Source: Escherichia coli
GTDB lineage: Bacteria > Pseudomonadota > Gammaproteobacteria > Enterobacterales > Enterobacteriaceae
Length of the DNA: 64,000 nt
Direction: 5' to 3' (one strand)
NCBI RefSeq assembly: GCF_003334385.1
Contig: NZ_QOWN01000005.1
Position numbers and translations under genes: made by a program
The notes under the pieces: model-generated
What the model was told of the DNA's origin: nothing
Database searches by the model: none
What the model saw: only the letters and a program-made list of their open reading frames with translations
Shown: positions 7,453-60,377 of the stretch, piece after piece
Numbering within the stretch: the first letter of the stretch is position 1
How the letters are laid out: each line of letters opens with the position of its first letter

Positions 7453-9177
7453 TCAGGTTCTCTCCGTTTTGCTTAACCACATTTCATCCATTCCGCCCCC
7501 GCGAATCTGCATCGGGTAGACGTGCTCGCTGCCATCGACGGTAACATCAACAAACACCAGGCGATTATTGCGCACCTGTTCCAGCGCCTCGCTAAGTTTG
7601 CTTTCCAGCTCATGCGGATGAGAAATCTGGATCCCGACATGCCCATAGGCTTCCGCCAGACGGACGAAATCGGGTAGCGATTGCATATAAGATTGTGAAT
7701 GACGGCCGGAATAGATCATGTCCTGCCACTGCTTCACCATCCCCAGATAGCGGTTATTGAGATTCACCACCAGTACGGGCAACTCGTATTGCAACGCGGT
7801 AGACAGTTCCTGGATGTTCATCTGAATACTGCCGTCGCCAGTGACGCAAACCACGGTTTCTTCTGGCAACGCCATTTTGACGCCCAGTGCCGCAGGTAAA
7901 CCAAAACCCATCGTGCCGAGGCCACCGGAATTGATCCAGCGACGCGGTTTGTCGAATGGATAATAAAGTGCAGCAAACATCTGGTGCTGCCCGACATCGG
8001 ACGTCACGTAAGCGTCTCCCTTCGTCAACCGCCAAAGAGTCTCGATCACCGCCTGCGGTTTAATCTTTTCACTGTGAGTGTCATATTTCAGGCACTGACG
8101 AGCGCGCCACTGTTCAATTTGCTGCCACCAGTCGCGGATCTCATCCAGTGGTTGATGGGCGGATTCTTGCGACAAGAGTTCAAGCATTTGTTCGAGGACC
8201 TGGCGAGCATCCCCCACAATCGGGATATCCGCAGTCACGGTTTTAGAAATGGAAGTAGGATCAATATCGATATGCAGAACAGTGGCATTTGGGCAGTACT
8301 TTGCCAGATTGTTCGTCGTTCGGTCATCAAATCGTACCCCGACGGCGAAAATCACATCCGCGTTATGCATCGTCATATTGGCTTCGTAGGTACCGTGCAT
8401 TCCCAGCATGCCCAGTGCCTGACGATGCGTTGCCGGAAACGCCCCCAGCCCCATCAATGAGCAAACAACGGGCAGATTCAACGCCTCCACCGTTTCTTTC
8501 AACTGCTGATGGCAGCCCGCCGTGATTGCCCCACCGCCTACGTAGACAACCGGTTTTTTTGCCGCTACCAGCGTTTGCAGAGCACGCTTAATTTGCCCTT
8601 TATGTCCGGTAGTAGTGGGATTGTAAGAACGCATACTGACCGACTCCGGCCAGACATAGGGTAATTTGTTCGCCGGATTAAGAATATCTTTCGGTAAATC
8701 AACGACTACTGGTCCTGGGCGACCACTTGCCGCCAGCCAGAAAGCCTTTTTCAGCACCTGCGGAATGTCTTCCGTTTGCTTAACCAGAAAACTGTGTTTA
8801 ACCACCGGTCGCGAAATCCCCACCATGTCGCACTCCTGAAAGGCATCGTAACCTATCAACGAGGTCGCTACCTGCCCGGAAAGGACAACTAATGGAATGG
8901 AATCCATATAAGCGGTGGCGATGCCAGTAATCGCATTGGTCGCCCCTGGACCCGACGTTACCAGCACGACGCCGACTTCCCCGGTCGCGCGCGCCAGGCC
9001 ATCGGCCATATGCACCGCCGCCTGCTCATGACGAACTAATACATGATCAATACCACCCACGGTATGCAATGCATCATAAATATCAAGGACTGCGCCTCCG
9101 GGATAACCGAATACTTGTTTAACGCCCTGATCGATAAGCGATCGGACGACCATCTCGGCTCCAGACAACATCTCCAT
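7453..9177 (-). CDS. ilvI: Acetolactate synthase III large subunit
   Basis: ORF track frame 7453..9267; 574-aa protein from [28 protein letters not shown]; TPP-binding motif GDGS visible. Confidence 0.93.
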
Positions 9178-9494
9178 GGCCTGCCTCACTGTTTGACGGA
9201 AAAAATGTGTAAAACACATTAACCGTCCGATCTTGCTTAAGCAATTGGCAGCCAGAGACATAAACACGGGGTAATAAGAATAAACAGGAGGAAAGGTGAA
9301 AAGAAACGATAAAATCCTCCATTACAGAGGATTAAATTGATAATAAATCGGCTGAATCCCACAACTTACAGCAATTTCTCTATTTTTTTAATTAATCCTA
9401 AAATAGAGAGCCCACACATTCAGAATAAAATTCTACATTCAATAAAAAATGCAGAATAAACCAGACATTCATGTCTGACCTATTCTGCAATCAG
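9178..9494 (-). promoter_or_regulatory. ilvIH promoter/upstream control region with Lrp-type AT-rich sites
   Basis: AT-rich non-coding spacer upstream of ilvI; repeated motif gcagaata at 9421-9429, 9452-9460 and inverted at 9481-9489; cagaataaaattctac resembles Lrp consensus; site assignment from established knowledge. Confidence 0.5.
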
Positions 9495-10439
9495 TTAGCG
9501 TTTGCAAATTGAGACTAATTGCTCTTCCATCCACTGATGGCCTTTATCGCGCCCGGCAGCTTCATGCCAGGAGAGATAACAGGTTCTGCTGTTTTGTTTT
9601 AACGGCAGCGGTAATACCTGTAATTCTAAGGATTCAGCGAACTCTTCAGCCAGCCAACGCGGCGCAATAGCGACCAAATGCGTTTGCGACACCACGCTAA
9701 GTACGCTCATCATTGCCATGCCCTGATACGCGATACTGGCTTGCTTATCTACCGTGTCATACCAAGGTTGACTAAATGACGCGAAACGATCGAGCGAAAC
9801 CGCCGCATGTTGTTCGTTATAAACATCATGTTTCAGTAACGGGCCCTTAATTGTTGGATGATTTTTGCTGGCTACCAGCACCATTTCATCTTTAAATAAT
9901 GGTACGCTGGTAAATTCAGGACGATGGAAGTCTTCATAACTAATCACAAACTCCGTTTCCTGATAACGCAGCTGATGTTCAGTGTTCTGATTTAATGAAG
10001 ACTTGAACATAACATGTATATTTGGCGCAATCTGCTCAATGTGATTATAAATCTGCGAGGTCAGAATGCTGTCTAACGGGCTGCAAACACAAAGATGAAA
10101 TACACGTTCACTGCTCGCGGGTTCAAAACCTGAACCAGGCAATTCATTTTGTACTAGTTGCAATGCCTGACGAACTGAACCAAAAAGTTGAAATGCGCGA
10201 GCAGTCGGTTGAATACCACGGCCATAACGAACAAAAAGCTCGTCATTAAACATCACCTTCAGGCGTGCAACAGCGTTACTGACCGCAGGTTGCGACATTC
10301 CCAGAACATGAGCGGCACGAGTAATGTTTTGCTCCTGCATCACGGCATCGAAAACGGTTAATAAGTTGAGATCGACCATGCGTAGCTGTGGTTTGCTTAA
10401 CTCCGCCGTCTCTGGATGATCTGTTTGTACCTCTGGCAT
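9495..10439 (-). CDS. leuO: LysR-family transcriptional regulator LeuO
   Basis: ORF track frame 9495..10616; 314-aa protein from [33 protein letters not shown] (LysR HTH). Confidence 0.9.
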
Positions 10440-11098
10440 ACTTAACTCCACTGTCACACTTAACTCCCTTTCCCTTATTGGAATGCAGAGAAATAATCCT
10501 GAAGAATATGATTTATCATGCATATAAAATAAGAAAAAGCAAAATGAGTAAAATTCGGAAAACATAAAGATACGGGTTCTGATAAAAACAGAATCCATTG
10601 CCGTGGAATGAGTCATTTACCACAGCATAATAATCCATAATATTTTTGTTGCGAAAACAATCTAATCATAACTACCGCGAATACTCAATCATCTACAAAA
10701 TGGATTAAATGTGCTTATTTAATAATTAATTTATATATTTAATGCATTAATTCTTAACATTAATTGATCAATAATATTCACCAAATCAATATCAAAAAAA
10801 ATCGCAAAACATATAATTCAATACAAATCATCAGGATAGGTTTTGCAACGCGTGCATTTTGTCCCCTTTTTCCTCGTTGATTAGATGCAAAAATTTATGC
10901 TGAAATATGTCAACCGATGAAAAGCGTCGGTAGTTAAGCAGAAATTAATATCGCTTACTTTAACCACCGCAGCACAATTAGCTAATTTTACGGATGCAGA
11001 ACTCACGCTGGCGGGACGTTTTTATTGCGTCAGGGTTGACATCCGTTTTTGTATCCAGTAACTCTAAAAGCATATCGCATTCATCTGGAGCTGATTTA
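10440..11098. promoter_or_regulatory. leuO-leuL divergent intergenic region, strongly AT-rich (probable H-NS-bound silencing/promoter-relay region)
   Basis: 659-bp non-coding block; 10680-10860 is almost pure A/T (ttaataattaatttatatatttaatgcattaattcttaacattaattgatcaataatattc); role inferred from established knowledge. Confidence 0.5.
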
Positions 11099-11185
11099 AT
11101 GACTCACATCGTTCGCTTTATCGGTCTACTACTACTAAACGCATCTTCTTTGCGCGGTAGACGAGTGAGCGGCATCCAGCATTAA
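11099..11185 (+). CDS. leuL: leu operon leader peptide (28 aa) with four consecutive Leu codons
   Basis: ATG ACT CAC ATC GTT CGC TTT ATC GGT CTA CTA CTA CTA AAC ... = [28 protein letters not shown], stop TAA 11183-11185. Confidence 0.9.
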
Positions 11186-11208
11186 GCCAGCACGCAGTCA
11201 AACAAAAA

Positions 11209-11236
11209 ACCCGCGCCATTGCGCGGGTTTTTTTAT
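11209..11236 (+). terminator. leu attenuator intrinsic terminator
   Basis: acccgcgc-catt-gcgcgggt hairpin followed by T7 run, between leuL and leuA. Confidence 0.8.
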
Positions 11237-11277
11237 GCCCGAAGCGAGGCGCTCTAAAAGAGACAAGGACCCAAACC

Positions 11278-13940
<2,663 letters not shown>

Positions 13941-16007: not shown

Positions 16008-17186
16008 TCAAACGTCTTTAACCTTTGCGGTTAAAAATAATGCGACAACAGAAATAACCGCAATTACCCAGTAGACAGCAAAGTGCCCCCAACTTTGTGC
16101 AATTGCTCCCTGAATAACGCCAGCCAGAATTACCCCGGTAGAAATACTGTTAGTAAATAAGGTGGTAGCTGCCCCCGCTCTTCCAGGCATTAAATCCTGA
16201 AACCATAGCATCCCAATACCCGCAACAATGCCGATAAATACAGCGTTAAAAAGTTGCAGCGTCATCAACGCCATACGGCTATTAAAGAAAATCAATCCGG
16301 TGTAAAACAGTACTCCTGCCGCCACTGCTATGACCATCATTCGCCGCTTACCATAACGTTTGACATAGTAGCCAGCCAGAATCATTGCTGGTATTTCCAG
16401 TCCAGCTGCCGTCCCCATCAGGAAACCCGCCAGTTTGTCTGGCAATCCTAACTCGCTACTGATCCACAACGGCATATCAATAATGTACATGGTGTTGCAG
16501 GTCCACATTAACGTCGAGGCGACAAATAACATCCGTACGTTACTATCCTGCCAGCCACCTTGCATTGATAAAGCATTTTCCGACGGCAGTTCTACCCGCG
16601 CCACAGACGGAAGCATAAATGCAATCAATACCAGACTGAGTGTGAATATCCCGGCGGCAATCGAAAACATCACCGTAAAGCCGTAATTCAACGCCAGCAT
16701 AAAGGCCAACGGTGGACCGATAACCCATGCCAGAGAAAGCTGCGCACGCATCACCGAGCTAAACATCACCACTTCTCGCGCCGAGTTATCCGCATATTCC
16801 CGCGCCAGAGCAAATAACTGTGGCATTGCCGTATTGGCCAGAGATGCCAGAAGCACACCACAGGTGATAAGCGTCAGATAATGACGATTAAATGCAAACA
16901 ATAGCGCATTGCCGATAGCCATCAAACAGCAAAATATAATCAGTTTTCGCCGATCGCCCTGACTGTCAGAACGTTTTGCCAACCAGAGGCTTACGCCGAT
17001 CCCAGCAATAGCATTCACCGTATAAAAGAGGCCGATCCAGAAAGGTTGCGCGCCAACCTCACGACTCAGAAATAAGCTCAATGTAGGAGCCTGTAGCGCC
17101 CCGGCCACCCCCATCATAAAAGCGACCAGCATAAATGCCGCGTAAACACCGTTCATACGGCGAGCCATCGTCATTATCCAGATCAT
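16008..17186 (-). CDS. setA: Sugar efflux transporter A (MFS)
   Basis: 392-aa ORF MIWIMTMARRMNGVYAAFMLVAFMMGVAG, 12-TM MFS profile; immediately downstream of sgrS. Confidence 0.93.
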   Translation of the reverse strand: MIWIMTMARRMNGVYAAFMLVAFMMGVAGALQAPTLSLFLSREVGAQPFWIGLFYTVNAIAGIGVSLWLAKRSDSQGDRRKLIIFCCLMAIGNALLFAFNRHYLTLITCGVLLASLANTAMPQLFALAREYADNSAREVVMFSSVMRAQLSLAWVIGPPLAFMLALNYGFTVMFSIAAGIFTLSLVLIAFMLPSVARVELPSENALSMQGGWQDSNVRMLFVASTLMWTCNTMYIIDMPLWISSELGLPDKLAGFLMGTAAGLEIPAMILAGYYVKRYGKRRMMVIAVAAGVLFYTGLIFFNSRMALMTLQLFNAVFIGIVAGIGMLWFQDLMPGRAGAATTLFTNSISTGVILAGVIQGAIAQSWGHFAVYWVIAVISVVALFLTAKVKDV

Positions 17187-17213: not shown

Positions 17214-17440
17214 AAAAAAAACCAGCAGGTATAATCTGCTGGCGGGTGATTTTACACCAATACTCAGTCACACATGATGCAGGCAAGTCAACTTTCAGAA
17301 TTGCGGTCATCCCACTGCATCAGTCCTTCAAGCATGGTTAATCGTTGTGGGACGCTTAACCAACGCAACCAGCACAACTTCGCTGTCGCGGTAAAATAGT
17401 GCTGATAAAACTGACGCATGGGGCACCCCCTTGCTTCATC
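17214..17440 (-). ncRNA. sgrS: SgrS small RNA (glucose-phosphate stress sRNA, dual-function)
   Basis: Minus-strand 3' end reads ...AAATCACCCGCCAGCAGATTATACCTGCTGGTTTTTTTT (terminator, U8 tail at 17214-17221); 5' end GATGAAGCAAGGGGGTGCCC near 17440; divergent from sgrR; contains sgrT ORF. Confidence 0.85.
17288..17419 (-). CDS. sgrT: SgrT, 43-aa peptide encoded within SgrS
   Basis: C-terminal 43 codons of ORF-track frame 17288..17587: MRQFYQHYFTATAKLCWLRWLSVPQRLTMLEGLMQWDDRNSES, ATG at 17417-17419. Confidence 0.85.
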   Translation of the reverse strand: MRQFYQHYFTATAKLCWLRWLSVPQRLTMLEGLMQWDDRNSES

Positions 17441-17507: not shown

Positions 17508-19163
17508 ATGCCATCTGCTCGTCTGCAACAACAGTTCATCCGCCTGTGGCAATGCTGCGAGGGTAAATCGCAGGACACAACGCTCAACGAACTGGCAGCG
17601 TTATTGAGCTGCTCGCGTCGTCATATGCGCACCCTGCTCAACACCATGCAGGATCGCGGCTGGCTGACGTGGGAAGCGGAAGTCGGGCGCGGTAAACGCT
17701 CGCGTCTGACATTCCTCTATACCGGGCTGGCGCTTCAGCAACAGCGGGCGGAAGACCTGCTGGAGCAGGATCGTATCGATCAACTGGTGCAGTTGGTTGG
17801 CGACAAAGCGACTGTGCGGCAAATGCTGGTTTCTCATCTGGGCCGCAGCTTCCGCCAGGGGCGGCACATCCTGCGCGTGCTCTACTATCGTCCGTTGCGT
17901 AATCTGCTACCTGGCAGCGCATTGCGCCGTTCCGAAACCCATATCGCCCGGCAAATCTTCAGTTCGCTAACGCGCATAAATGAGGAAAATGGGGAACTGG
18001 AAGCAGACATCGCCCACCACTGGCAGCAAATTTCACCGCTTCACTGGCGTTTCTTTTTGCGTCCAGGAGTCCATTTTCACCATGGTCGTGAACTGGAAAT
18101 GGACGATGTGATCGCCTCTTTAAAACGAATCAATACGCTGCCGCTCTATTCGCATATTGCTGACATTGTGTCGCCGACGCCCTGGACGCTGGATATCCAT
18201 CTCACGCAACCGGACCGCTGGTTACCGTTACTGCTGGGGCAAGTTCCGGCGATGATCCTGCCGCGCGAATGGGAAACCCTCAGTAACTTTGCCAGCCATC
18301 CCATCGGCACCGGTCCGTATGCGGTGATTCGCAACAGCACCAATCAACTGAAAATTCAGGCATTCGATGACTTCTTCGGTTACCGGGCATTAATCGACGA
18401 AGTTAACGTCTGGGTTCTGCCGGAAATTGCCGACGAGCCAGCCGGAGGGCTGATGCTAAAAGGTCCACAGGGCGAGGAAAAAGAGATTGAAAGCCGCCTG
18501 GAGGAAGGTTGCTACTATTTACTGTTCGACAGCCGCACCCATCGCGGGGCGAATCAGCAAGTCAGGGACTGGGTAAGCTATGTGCTTTCTCCAACTAATC
18601 TGGTCTATTTCGCTGAGGAACAGTACCAGCAACTGTGGTTCCCGGCTTATGGACTGCTCCCCCGTTGGCACCATGCCCGCACCATAAAGAGCGAAAAACC
18701 GGCTGGCCTGGAAAGCCTCACCCTAACCTTTTATCAGGATCACAGTGAGCATCGGGTGATTGCCGGGATCATGCAGCAGATTCTGGCAAGTCACCAGGTC
18801 ACGCTGAAAATCAAAGAGATCGACTACGATCAGTGGCATACAGGAGAGATCGAAAGTGATATCTGGCTAAACAGCGCCAACTTTACCCTGCCGCTGGACT
18901 TCTCTGTTTTCGCACATTTATGCGAAGTGCCACTGCTACAACATTGCATTCCCATTGACTGGCAAGCCGACGCTGCTCGCTGGCGCAATGGCGAGATGAA
19001 TCTGGCGAACTGGTGCCAGCAACTGGTCGCCAGCAAAGCGATGGTGCCATTATTGCACCACTGGCTGATCATTCAGGGGCAACGCAGTATGCGCGGCCTG
19101 CGCATGAATACCCTCGGCTGGTTCGATTTTAAATCAGCGTGGTTTGCGCCACCGGATCCATGA
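17508..19163 (+). CDS. sgrR: Transcriptional regulator SgrR
   Basis: ORF track starts at TTG 17487; ATG 17508 preceded by aggag gives [20 protein letters not shown] (551 aa); N-terminal HTH plus solute-binding-like domain. Confidence 0.9.
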
Positions 19164-19198
19164 TTGCTGGTTGATAACAAAATCACTACACTAACGCC

Positions 19199-19291
19199 GT
19201 TCTCAACGGGGTGCCACGCGTACGCGTGCGCTGAGAAAATACCCGTCGAACCTGATCCGGATAACGCCGGCGAAGGGATTTGAGGCTCCTT
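19199..19291 (+). promoter_or_regulatory. sroA: TPP riboswitch (THI-box; sroA) in thiBPQ leader
   Basis: THI-box core ggggtgccacgcgtacgcgtgcgCTGAGAaaatACCCgtcgAACCTGATCCGGATAAcGCCGGCGaAGGGA upstream of thiB; boundaries approximate. Confidence 0.75.
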
Positions 19292-19326
19292 CTCAAGTCC
19301 TTTGCCACTCTTTTTTGAGGTGCAAA

Positions 19327-20310
19327 GTGTTAAAAAAATGTCTGCCCCTGCTGTTGCTGTGCACAGCGCCCGTTTTCGCTAAACCCGTTCTGACTGTTTA
19401 TACCTACGATTCCTTCGCCGCCGACTGGGGGCCTGGTCCGGTGGTTAAAAAAGCCTTTGAAGCCGACTGTAATTGCGAACTGAAACTGGTGGCGCTGGAA
19501 GATGGCGTTTCGCTTCTCAACCGTCTACGGATGGAAGGCAAAAACAGTAAAACCGATGTGGTGCTGGGGCTGGATAACAACCTGTTAGACGCCGCCAGTA
19601 AAACCGGACTGTTTGCCAAAAGCGGTGTGGCAGCGGATGCCGTTAACGTTCCCGGCGGCTGGAATAATGACACTTTCGTACCGTTTGATTATGGCTACTT
19701 CGCCTTCGTTTATGACAAGAACAAACTGAAAAACCCGCCACAAAGCCTGAAAGAACTGGTTGAGAGCGATCAAAACTGGCGGGTGATTTATCAGGATCCG
19801 CGCACCAGTACACCGGGGCTGGGTCTGTTGCTATGGATGCAAAAAGTCTATGGCGATGACGCCCCACAAGCCTGGCAGAAACTGGCGAAGAAAACGGTCA
19901 CGGTCACCAAAGGCTGGAGCGAAGCCTACGGCCTGTTTTTAAAAGGTGAAAGCGATCTGGTACTGAGTTACACCACCTCTCCGGCTTATCACATTCTCGA
20001 AGAGAAGAAAGATAACTACGCCGCCGCGAACTTCAGCGAAGGTCACTATCTGCAAGTGGAAGTCGCCGCCCGCACCGCTGCCAGCAAGCAGCCGGAGCTG
20101 GCGCAAAAATTCCTCCAGTTTATGGTTTCTCCGGCTTTCCAGAATGCGATCCCAACCGGCAACTGGATGTATCCGGTGGCAAACGTCACGCTGCCTGCCG
20201 GTTTTGAAAAATTGACCAAACCCGCAACCACGTTGGAGTTCACGCCAGCCGAAGTGGCGGCACAACGTCAGGCATGGATTAGCGAATGGCAACGCGCCGT
20301 CAGCCGTTAA
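19327..20310 (+). CDS. thiB: Thiamine ABC transporter periplasmic binding protein
   Basis: ORF track frame from TTG 19315; GTG 19327 after gagg RBS gives (M)LKKCLPLLLLCTAPVFA signal peptide; 327 aa. Confidence 0.9.
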   Translation: MLKKCLPLLLLCTAPVFAKPVLTVYTYDSFAADWGPGPVVKKAFEADCNCELKLVALEDGVSLLNRLRMEGKNSKTDVVLGLDNNLLDAASKTGLFAKSGVAADAVNVPGGWNNDTFVPFDYGYFAFVYDKNKLKNPPQSLKELVESDQNWRVIYQDPRTSTPGLGLLLWMQKVYGDDAPQAWQKLAKKTVTVTKGWSEAYGLFLKGESDLVLSYTTSPAYHILEEKKDNYAAANFSEGHYLQVEVAARTAASKQPELAQKFLQFMVSPAFQNAIPTGNWMYPVANVTLPAGFEKLTKPATTLEFTPAEVAAQRQAWISEWQRAVSR

Positions 20311-27989: not shown

Positions 27990-28415
27990 GTAACACCTGA
28001 TGCGACGCTGACGCGTCTTATCTGGCCTACACGCTGCGATTTTGTAGGCCGGATAAGCAAAGCGCATCCGGCATTCAACGCCTGATGCGACGCTGGCGCG
28101 TCTTATCAGGCCTACGCGCTGCGATTTTGTAGGCCGGATAAGCAAAGCGCATCCGGCATTCAACGCCTGATGCGACGCTGGCGCGTCTTATCAGGCCTAC
28201 GCGCTGCGATTTTGTAGGCCGGATAAGCAAAGCGCATCCGGCATTCAACGCCTGATGCGACGCTGGCGCGTCTTATCAGGCCTACGCGCTGCGATTTTGT
28301 AGGCCGGATAAGCAAAGCGCATCCGGCATTCAACGCCTGATGCGACGCTGGCGCGTCTTATCAGGCCTACACGCTGCGATTTTGTAGGCCGGATAAGCAA
28401 AGCGCATCCGGCACG
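27990..28415. repeat. Tandem array of five ~85-bp BIME units (paired inverted REP sequences) between araA and araD
   Basis: Unit boundaries about 27995/28080/28165/28250/28335; units 2-4 are identical 85-mers (gcctgatgcgacgctggcgcgtcttatcaggcctacgcgctgcgattttgtaggccggataagcaaagcgcatccggcattcaac), units 1 and 5 carry a few substitutions. Confidence 0.9.
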
Positions 28416-60201: not shown

Positions 60202-60377
60202 TGCCGGATGCGGCGTAAACGCCTTATCCAACTCTGCTGGAGAGCAACCGTAGGCCGGATAAGATGCGCCAGCATCGCATCCGGCGATAGCTGTCGGATG
60301 CGGCATAAACGCCTTATCCAACCCGGCTGGAGAGCAACCGTAAGCCGGATAAGATGCGCCAGCATCGCATCCGGCGA
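60202..60377. repeat. Two tandem ~86-bp BIME units (each an inverted REP pair) between convergent caiE and caiF
   Basis: Unit A 60202-60287 and unit B 60292-60377: t(g/t)(c/t)cggatgcggc(g/a)taaacgccttatccaac(t/c)c(t/g)gctggagagcaaccgta(g/a)gccggataagatgcgccagcatcgcatccggcga. Confidence 0.85.

Follow-up and report, generated by a model that had tools for sequence, protein, structure and literature searches.

Anatomy, alternative pairings and codon conservation of the leuL leader of the Escherichia coli leuLABCD operon

Work on the leu leader goes back to about 1979-1986, and practically all E. coli genomes carry an annotation of it. This leader is an already known system, and both its mechanism and the significance of its rare codons were shown by experiment decades ago. 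One preprint (bioRxiv 10.1101/2021.05.27.446073) treats E. coli leuL as a case of regulation by attenuation, with reference to Wessler & Calvo 1981. According to the same preprint ribosomes pause at the four CUA codons of leuL, and the RNA-seq density drops 29-fold from leuL to leuA in control cells versus 4-fold in cells with impaired CUA decoding. A swap of CUA to UUA reduced the response of a reporter from 11.5-fold to 2.7-fold (bioRxiv 10.1101/2021.05.27.446073). The leuL used in that work is the K-12 sequence and is identical to the element described here.

A second source takes the leu operon for the model case of attenuation leaders that employ rare codons, and explains the choice of leader codons by the selective charging of isoacceptors (PMC1183508). 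The use of rare codons is not general, as thrL has the major codon ACC (PMC1183508). This source cites Carter, Bartkus & Calvo 1986 for the observation that replacing CUA by CUG in the Salmonella leu leader lowered the sensitivity to leucine limitation.

In this study we analysed one copy of this leader in its genomic context, where "window" denotes the whole stretch of 64 kb of DNA that was analysed. The contribution of the present analysis lies in the anatomy of the element, its three exclusive pairings, its family membership and the conservation of its CUA codons.

Anatomy and identity of the leader

The leader peptide ORF of leuL was read directly from the sequence at 11099-11185 on the plus strand. 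It starts with an ATG at 11099, comprises 28 sense codons and ends with a TAA at 11183-11185; a Shine-Dalgarno motif, GGAG, is located at 11087-11090 (+), 8 nt 5' of the ATG. This GGAG/GAGG block is kept across the alignment of Enterobacterales leu leaders among the matches listed. Codons 10-13 (11126-11137, +) are four CUA leucine codons in a row, so that the ORF and the run of CTA triplets are present as the original prediction had described them. A translatable short ORF, a Shine-Dalgarno motif and a cluster of leucine codons are thereby found together, as in an attenuator leader.

The codon CUA is rare in this DNA, which had also been claimed beforehand: in the 37 long ORFs of the 64-kb window it accounts for 55 of 1731 leucine codons (3.2%), compared to 57% for CUG. 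Given this codon usage, the chance of finding CUA at all four given leucine positions is approximately 1e-6. The 12-mer that forms the run, CTACTACTACTA, occurs once in the 64 kb if both strands are counted, and was absent from 100 out of 100 shuffles. Three other runs of four leucines in ordinary genes of the window are encoded with CTG, TTG and CTC. A tRNA scan of the 64-kb window returned zero tRNA genes, and the gene for tRNA-Leu(UAG) is therefore not close by.

The intrinsic terminator, i.e. the attenuator proper (3:4 pairing), spans 11204-11234 (+) and consists of AAAAAACCCGCGC, the loop CAUU and GCGCGGGUUUUUU followed by seven T; it was assigned from sequence, folding and the stem of the Rfam model. 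Its G+C-rich stem has 7 bp (CCCGCGC at 11210-16 and GCGCGGG at 11221-27, closed by the loop CATT) and precedes TTTTTTT at 11228-11234. The six A located 5' of the hairpin can pair with six of the T, which extends the stem to 13 bp (11204-11233), and the energy of the hairpin is -19.6 kcal/mol. The terminator follows the leader ORF and precedes the first structural gene, as is characteristic of an attenuator. A GC-rich hairpin with a run of seven T had been predicted at 23 nt after the stop codon and within a feature ending at 11236. Hairpin and T-run stand, the gap is 24 nt (11186-11209), or 18 nt if the A6:U6 extension from 11204 is counted as part of the stem, and the T-run ends at 11234.

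As A6 and T7 flank the hairpin, it appears terminator-like on both strands (11203-11257, -); no minus-strand gene reads into it. A Leu_leader match on the minus strand (11203-11257), which with 33.9 bits stays under the gathering score, and a weak match to Betaproteobacteria_toxic_sRNA were rejected, both overlapping this palindromic terminator. Weak matches to Thr_leader (27.6 bits) and Phe_leader (25.7 bits), which arise via the terminator, remained under the gathering score of 55. Matches to MIR2629 at 10913-10984 fall into the upstream intergenic region and are chance-like; these and the weak leader-family matches were rejected too.

Upstream of the leader a perfect consensus -35 hexamer, TTGACA, is located at 11036-11041 (+), and it is kept in at least 95% of the 113 distinct Enterobacterales upstream regions aligned among the matches listed. 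A candidate -10 element with a weak match to the consensus, TAACTC (11059-11064, +), follows 17 nt 3' of it. Its leading TA is conserved in the same upstream alignment, among the matches listed, as part of a GTA.C block at the expected -10 distance. We take TTGACA and the GTA.C block as the putative leu promoter. The transcription start, which on the basis of the K-12 annotation we take to be near 11072, would make the leader RNA approximately 160 nt long. A generic promoter and terminator scan of 10600-11400 gave no call for the leu promoter or the attenuator terminator, and none on the plus strand. We treat these misses as false negatives of simple rules, and the scan is poor as negative evidence: the promoter was missed because its -10 matches poorly, the terminator probably because the A:U stem extension uses up the T-run.

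The family assignment is in agreement with this anatomy. The Rfam model Leu_leader (RF00512, gathering score 50 bits) matches window positions 11085-11234 (+) over model positions 1-148 of 148 with 145.8 bits and E = 2.8e-33. Residues 1-28 of 28 of the peptide are covered by a match to the NCBIfam model NF007397, "leu operon leader peptide", with 80.9 bits at an equivalog cut-off of 59 bits. A second NCBIfam model, NF011328, scores 50.3 bits, under its cut-off of 63, and presumably models the leader of another lineage. No riboswitch or T-box aptamer family of Rfam was matched in 9000-13000, even at E <= 1. The first regulated gene, leuA (2-isopropylmalate synthase; 11278-12849, +; NCBIfam NF002084, 1047 bits), starts 43 nt past the T-run and is followed by leuB, leuC and leuD. 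The leucine biosynthesis genes thus stand directly downstream on the same strand, as expected in the context of RF00512 and in agreement with the K-12 annotation.

To place the locus among sequenced strains, a 301-nt query (window 10990-11290) was compared with 5426 complete E. coli genomes, 5400 of which carry it as a full-length single copy. Both leuL and leuA are annotated in every record listed among the matches to this query. The most divergent E. coli copies inspected (96-98% identity) retain the four CTA codons. The 301-nt stretch is a base-for-base match to K-12 MG1655, where leuL (b0075) is annotated at 83622-83708, divergent from leuO. The broader stretch 10620-12849 (2.2 kb) differs from MG1655, and the window therefore stems from a different E. 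coli strain. Its region corresponds to E. coli ilvI-leuO-leuLABCD, reversed relative to K-12 numbering. We conclude that the element is almost certainly the leuL leader of the E. coli leuLABCD operon, a ribosome-mediated transcription attenuator; it is the known system itself, beyond mere similarity. The reading as an attenuation sensor, made from the letters alone, is borne out by the Rfam and NCBIfam assignments, the identity with K-12 leuL and the downstream leuA. The element can serve as a positive control, i.e. a textbook attenuator recognised from raw sequence with the detail of its rare codons included.

Some further observations concern the surroundings of the operon. The leuO-leuL intergenic region at 10600-10900 has a G+C content of 25% compared to about 50% in its flanks, and represents a strongly AT-rich divergent control region. 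Between leuO and ilvI the K-12 annotation contains the 14-residue YabR (b4726), which would correspond to approximately 9296-9340 (+) of the window. The small RNA SgrS (Rfam RF00534, 228.8 bits) is found at 17214-17440 on the minus strand, flanked by a setA-like ORF (16008-17186) and an sgrR-like ORF (17508-19163). A position between setA and sgrR is the expected arrangement for this region of E. coli. A TPP riboswitch (RF00059, 65.9 bits at a gathering score of 54.3; 19197-19296, +) precedes the ORFs that begin at 19531; it is the sole riboswitch matched in the window and presumably the thiBPQ leader. Four tandem Rfam naRNA4 units (RF02564; 60.2 bits each, gathering score 59.5) are spaced exactly 85 nt apart at 28047-28367 (+), and a further copy with 70.7 bits lies at 60253-60323 (-). 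The units look like a REP/BIME-type repeat array.

Mutually exclusive hairpins of the leader RNA

The free leader was folded as the 165 nt from 11072 to 11236. Its minimum free energy (MFE) is -55.7 kcal/mol (z = -4.84 compared to shuffles), and the MFE fold consists of a large 5' domain, with the protector as its core, and the terminator. The core of the protector (1:2) hairpin spans 11124-11162 (+). It is formed by GUCUACU at 11124-30 pairing with GGUAGAC at 11156-62 and by CGCA at 11140-43 pairing with UGCG at 11151-54. The protector extends outward to 11109-11172 and then to the Shine-Dalgarno/start and stop regions (11085-11197), with element energies of -9.2, -21.4 and -34.8 kcal/mol. 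Codons 21-22 of leuL (11159-11164, +) are the rare arginine codons AGA and CGA, which make up 2.2% and 4.9% of the arginine codons in the window. The choice of these two codons is probably dictated by RNA structure, because they sit in the 3' strand of the protector (GGUAGACGAG).

The antiterminator, or preemptor (2:3), spans 11152-11216 (+), where GCGCGG at 11152-57 pairs with CCGCGC at 11211-16 and encloses a small inner helix. Both strands have an alternative partner. For GCGCGG at 11152-57 this is the leucine-codon region in the protector (11124-30 and 11140-43), and for CCGCGC at 11211-16 it is GCGCGG at 11222-27 in the terminator. All three exclusive pairings of the classical model, the 1:2 protector, the 2:3 antiterminator and the 3:4 terminator, are accordingly present in the predicted folds. 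In silico the antiterminator shares bases with the terminator and is blocked by a protector that overlaps the control codons, which is the arrangement that defines an attenuator.

The antiterminator never appeared in the MFE fold of the complete leader, neither in the plain fold nor with the ribosome masked. At equilibrium the terminator forms with P = 0.998, even if the footprint of a ribosome on the leucine codons is masked. In the RNA 3' of the stalled ribosome, the terminator state is favoured over the antiterminator state by 11.8 kcal/mol. As the switch is kinetic, equilibrium folds were dropped as a test of attenuation and replaced by folds of truncated transcripts. In this co-transcriptional setting the transcript ends at 11220, where the 3' arm of the terminator has not yet been made.

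With a ribosome on any of codons 10-13, and only the RNA 3' of the ribosome considered, the pairs of the antiterminator form with P of 0.93 to 1.0 in the transcript ending at 11220; the energy of the antiterminator in this transcript is -19.9 kcal/mol. A ribosome stalled there has its leading edge 13 to 4 nt upstream of 11152, a geometry that fits this pairing. In the same transcript without a ribosome GCGCGG is locked in the protector, and the 5' arm of the terminator is for the most part single-stranded or engaged in weak pairs at other sites. If the ribosome has moved on to the stop codon, the 5' arm of the terminator is left without a partner in the transcript to 11220, and the protector is able to re-form behind the ribosome in the ribosome-masked fold of the complete leader. 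The antiterminator is thus seen only in transcripts that lack the 3' arm of the terminator, as a kinetic, co-transcriptional switch predicts. Its lower stability by 11.8 kcal/mol, together with the near-complete formation of the terminator at equilibrium, implies that read-through would rely on kinetic trapping of the 2:3 pairing, in keeping with established knowledge of this class of attenuators.

Folding for alternative hairpins had been proposed beforehand as a check of the attenuator reading. Protector, antiterminator and terminator were all found, the antiterminator in the co-transcriptional folds only. The plain MFE fold alone would have led to a false rejection of the attenuator, which means that co-transcriptional folds are needed for switches of this kind.

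These folds can be arranged into the following scheme. A ribosome would translate the 28-codon leader while RNA polymerase, having started downstream of the conserved TTGACA, is still transcribing the leader. With an ample supply of charged tRNA-Leu for CUA, the ribosome would pass codons 10-13 and then either cover GCGCGG at 11152-57 or, at the stop codon, let the protector (11124-11162) re-form behind it. Either way CCGCGC at 11211-16 would be free to pair with GCGCGG at 11222-27, the terminator would form and transcription would end in the T-run. If the charged tRNA is scarce, the ribosome would stall on the four CUA codons, and its footprint, approximately 11111-11147, would occupy the 5' strand of the protector. 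GCGCGG at 11152-57, located 4-13 nt ahead of the stalled ribosome, might then pair with CCGCGC at 11211-16 once the latter is transcribed. The antiterminator would pre-empt the terminator, and polymerase could proceed into leuA. The use of a rare codon, decoded by a minor isoacceptor, may allow the switch to respond early to leucine limitation. From established knowledge and the cited papers we infer that ribosome and polymerase are coupled, that the trapping is kinetic and how the operon responds physiologically. By analogy with trpL, we assume that polymerase pauses and thereby keeps transcription in step with the translation of the leader.

Conservation of the CUA run and its possible causes

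Related leaders were collected from one genome per species with the pattern AACGCAT...TGCGC...CCGCGCNNNTGCGCGG, in which part of the protector and terminator strands is fixed and the leucine codons are left free. At least 120 loci match. Of the 120 matches listed, 119 belong to Enterobacterales and range from Escherichia to Yersinia, Serratia, Pantoea, Erwinia, Pectobacterium and Dickeya. The remaining one, from Rhizobium (L013), lacks a T-run, lies in G+C-rich sequence and was excluded as a chance match; another locus (L043), which runs off the locus edge, was also left out. In the 112 distinct Enterobacterales leaders among the matches listed, CUA occupies 458 of 518 control leucine codons (88%), followed by CUC (36), CUU (22), CUG (1) and UUA (1). 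At the other leucine codons of these same 112 leader peptides CUA occurs in 0 out of 189 cases; here TTG is partly forced by the search pattern, the 63 CTG are not.

Two leader architectures are found among the matches listed, and they differ by a one-codon indel. The LLLL type occurs in Escherichia, Salmonella, Citrobacter, Enterobacter and Klebsiella, and the LLxLLL type in Yersinia, Serratia, Pantoea, Erwinia and Pectobacterium.

An alignment of 111 sequences among the matches listed has the core helix of the protector paired in 98-100%, with a compensatory column pair (UA 56, CG 43). The consensus computed with RNAalifold supports the protector, and its register of the helix shows more compensatory pairs. 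The inner helix of the antiterminator covaries as well in these 111 sequences, e.g. AU 43 and CG 31. The closing 6 bp of the antiterminator and the core of the terminator are invariant by construction of the search pattern and do not count as covariation evidence.

The conserved CUA codons might be explained chiefly by RNA structure, with their rarity incidental, as CUACU must pair with GGUAG in the protector. We regard this explanation as possible but rather unlikely. It agrees with the pairing of CUACU at 11126-11130 with GGUAG at 11156-11160 in the MFE fold, and with a CUACU:GGUAG helix that is 98% paired across 111 leaders among the matches listed. In addition, (CUA)4 offers three registers for GGUAG, and the RNAalifold register differs from that of the single-sequence fold. 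Any one register, however, needs just 5 of the 12 nucleotides of the run. The CUA codons left over are placed in an internal loop (11131-11139), but in the LLLL-type leaders among the matches listed they are just as invariant as the paired ones. Within the same set of matches, the extra upstream leucine codons of the LLxLLL leaders are also mostly CUA, whereas the other leucine codons of the same peptides never are. Published codon swaps shifted the sensitivity, although these swaps also altered the protector helix. Most likely both structure and codon rarity constrain the CUA run. A more specific version, which we put forward tentatively, is that (CUA)4 is doubly constrained as the sensor for the minor tRNA-Leu(UAG) and as a register-degenerate 5' strand of the protector that offers CUACU three times, in three frames. 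If this holds, codon identity in the run would be partly structural and both effects would have been mixed in the classical "rare codon" swaps. It would refine a textbook system and add no new kind of element.

The two other readings that we considered dispense with attenuation altogether. In the first, the product of the short ORF would be a functional small protein, and the hairpin would be the constitutive terminator of this small gene. The leader peptide does show recognisable conservation (LLLNAS.LRG) across Enterobacterales, and an NCBIfam model is devoted to it. Its conserved residues, however, fall exactly on the bases that make up the strands of protector and antiterminator (AACGCAU...UGCGCGGUAG), while the N- and C-terminal thirds of the peptide vary freely and some stop codons shift. 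Moreover, the 5' arm of the terminator has a conserved alternative partner, and leuA follows the ORF at 43-92 nt on the same strand, without a promoter called in between. Such a protein gene is very improbable. That a chance ORF and a chance hairpin came together in intergenic DNA is practically inconceivable. Short ORFs are abundant in the window, but the probability of four CUA codons (~1e-6), their recurrence in 0 of 100 shuffles, the fold z-score of -4.84 and the Rfam E-value of 2.8e-33 all speak against coincidence, as does the conservation of the element in at least 119 genomes of other species and 5400 E. coli genomes. Nothing in the data speaks against the attenuator reading, and it is the one we retain.

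Comparison with known attenuators

The closest described system is K-12 leuL (b0075), represented by RF00512. Peptide, four CUA codons, terminator and the place upstream of leuA are the same, and no difference is found within the element. The leu leader of Salmonella enterica (typhimurium; Gemmill et al. 1979 and Carter et al. 1986, as cited in PMC1183508) has the same architecture with identical core RNA strands. Compared to E. coli, the Salmonella leader carries a few peptide substitutions and altered outer helices. According to PMC1183508, "three CUA codons" were exchanged in the Salmonella experiments, while the sequence retrieved from S. enterica subsp. arizonae (L064), MSHIVRFTGLLLLNAFSVRGRRVGGIQH, contains CTA four times.

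The LLxLLL leaders share the strands of protector, antiterminator and terminator with E. coli, and CUA is dominant among their control codons as well. They differ in that Gly, Ser or Val splits their five leucine codons, where E. coli has an unbroken run of four, and in the deletion of one codon relative to E. coli. In leaders of the Yersinia and Serratia type CUU or CUC often takes the place of CUA as the final control codon.

On a wider scale trpL, hisL, pheL, thrL and ilvL/ivbL resemble leuL in their leader ORFs rich in cognate codons, their 1:2, 2:3 and 3:4 hairpins and a terminator before the first biosynthetic gene. They are distinguished from leuL by their control codons, which are different ones.
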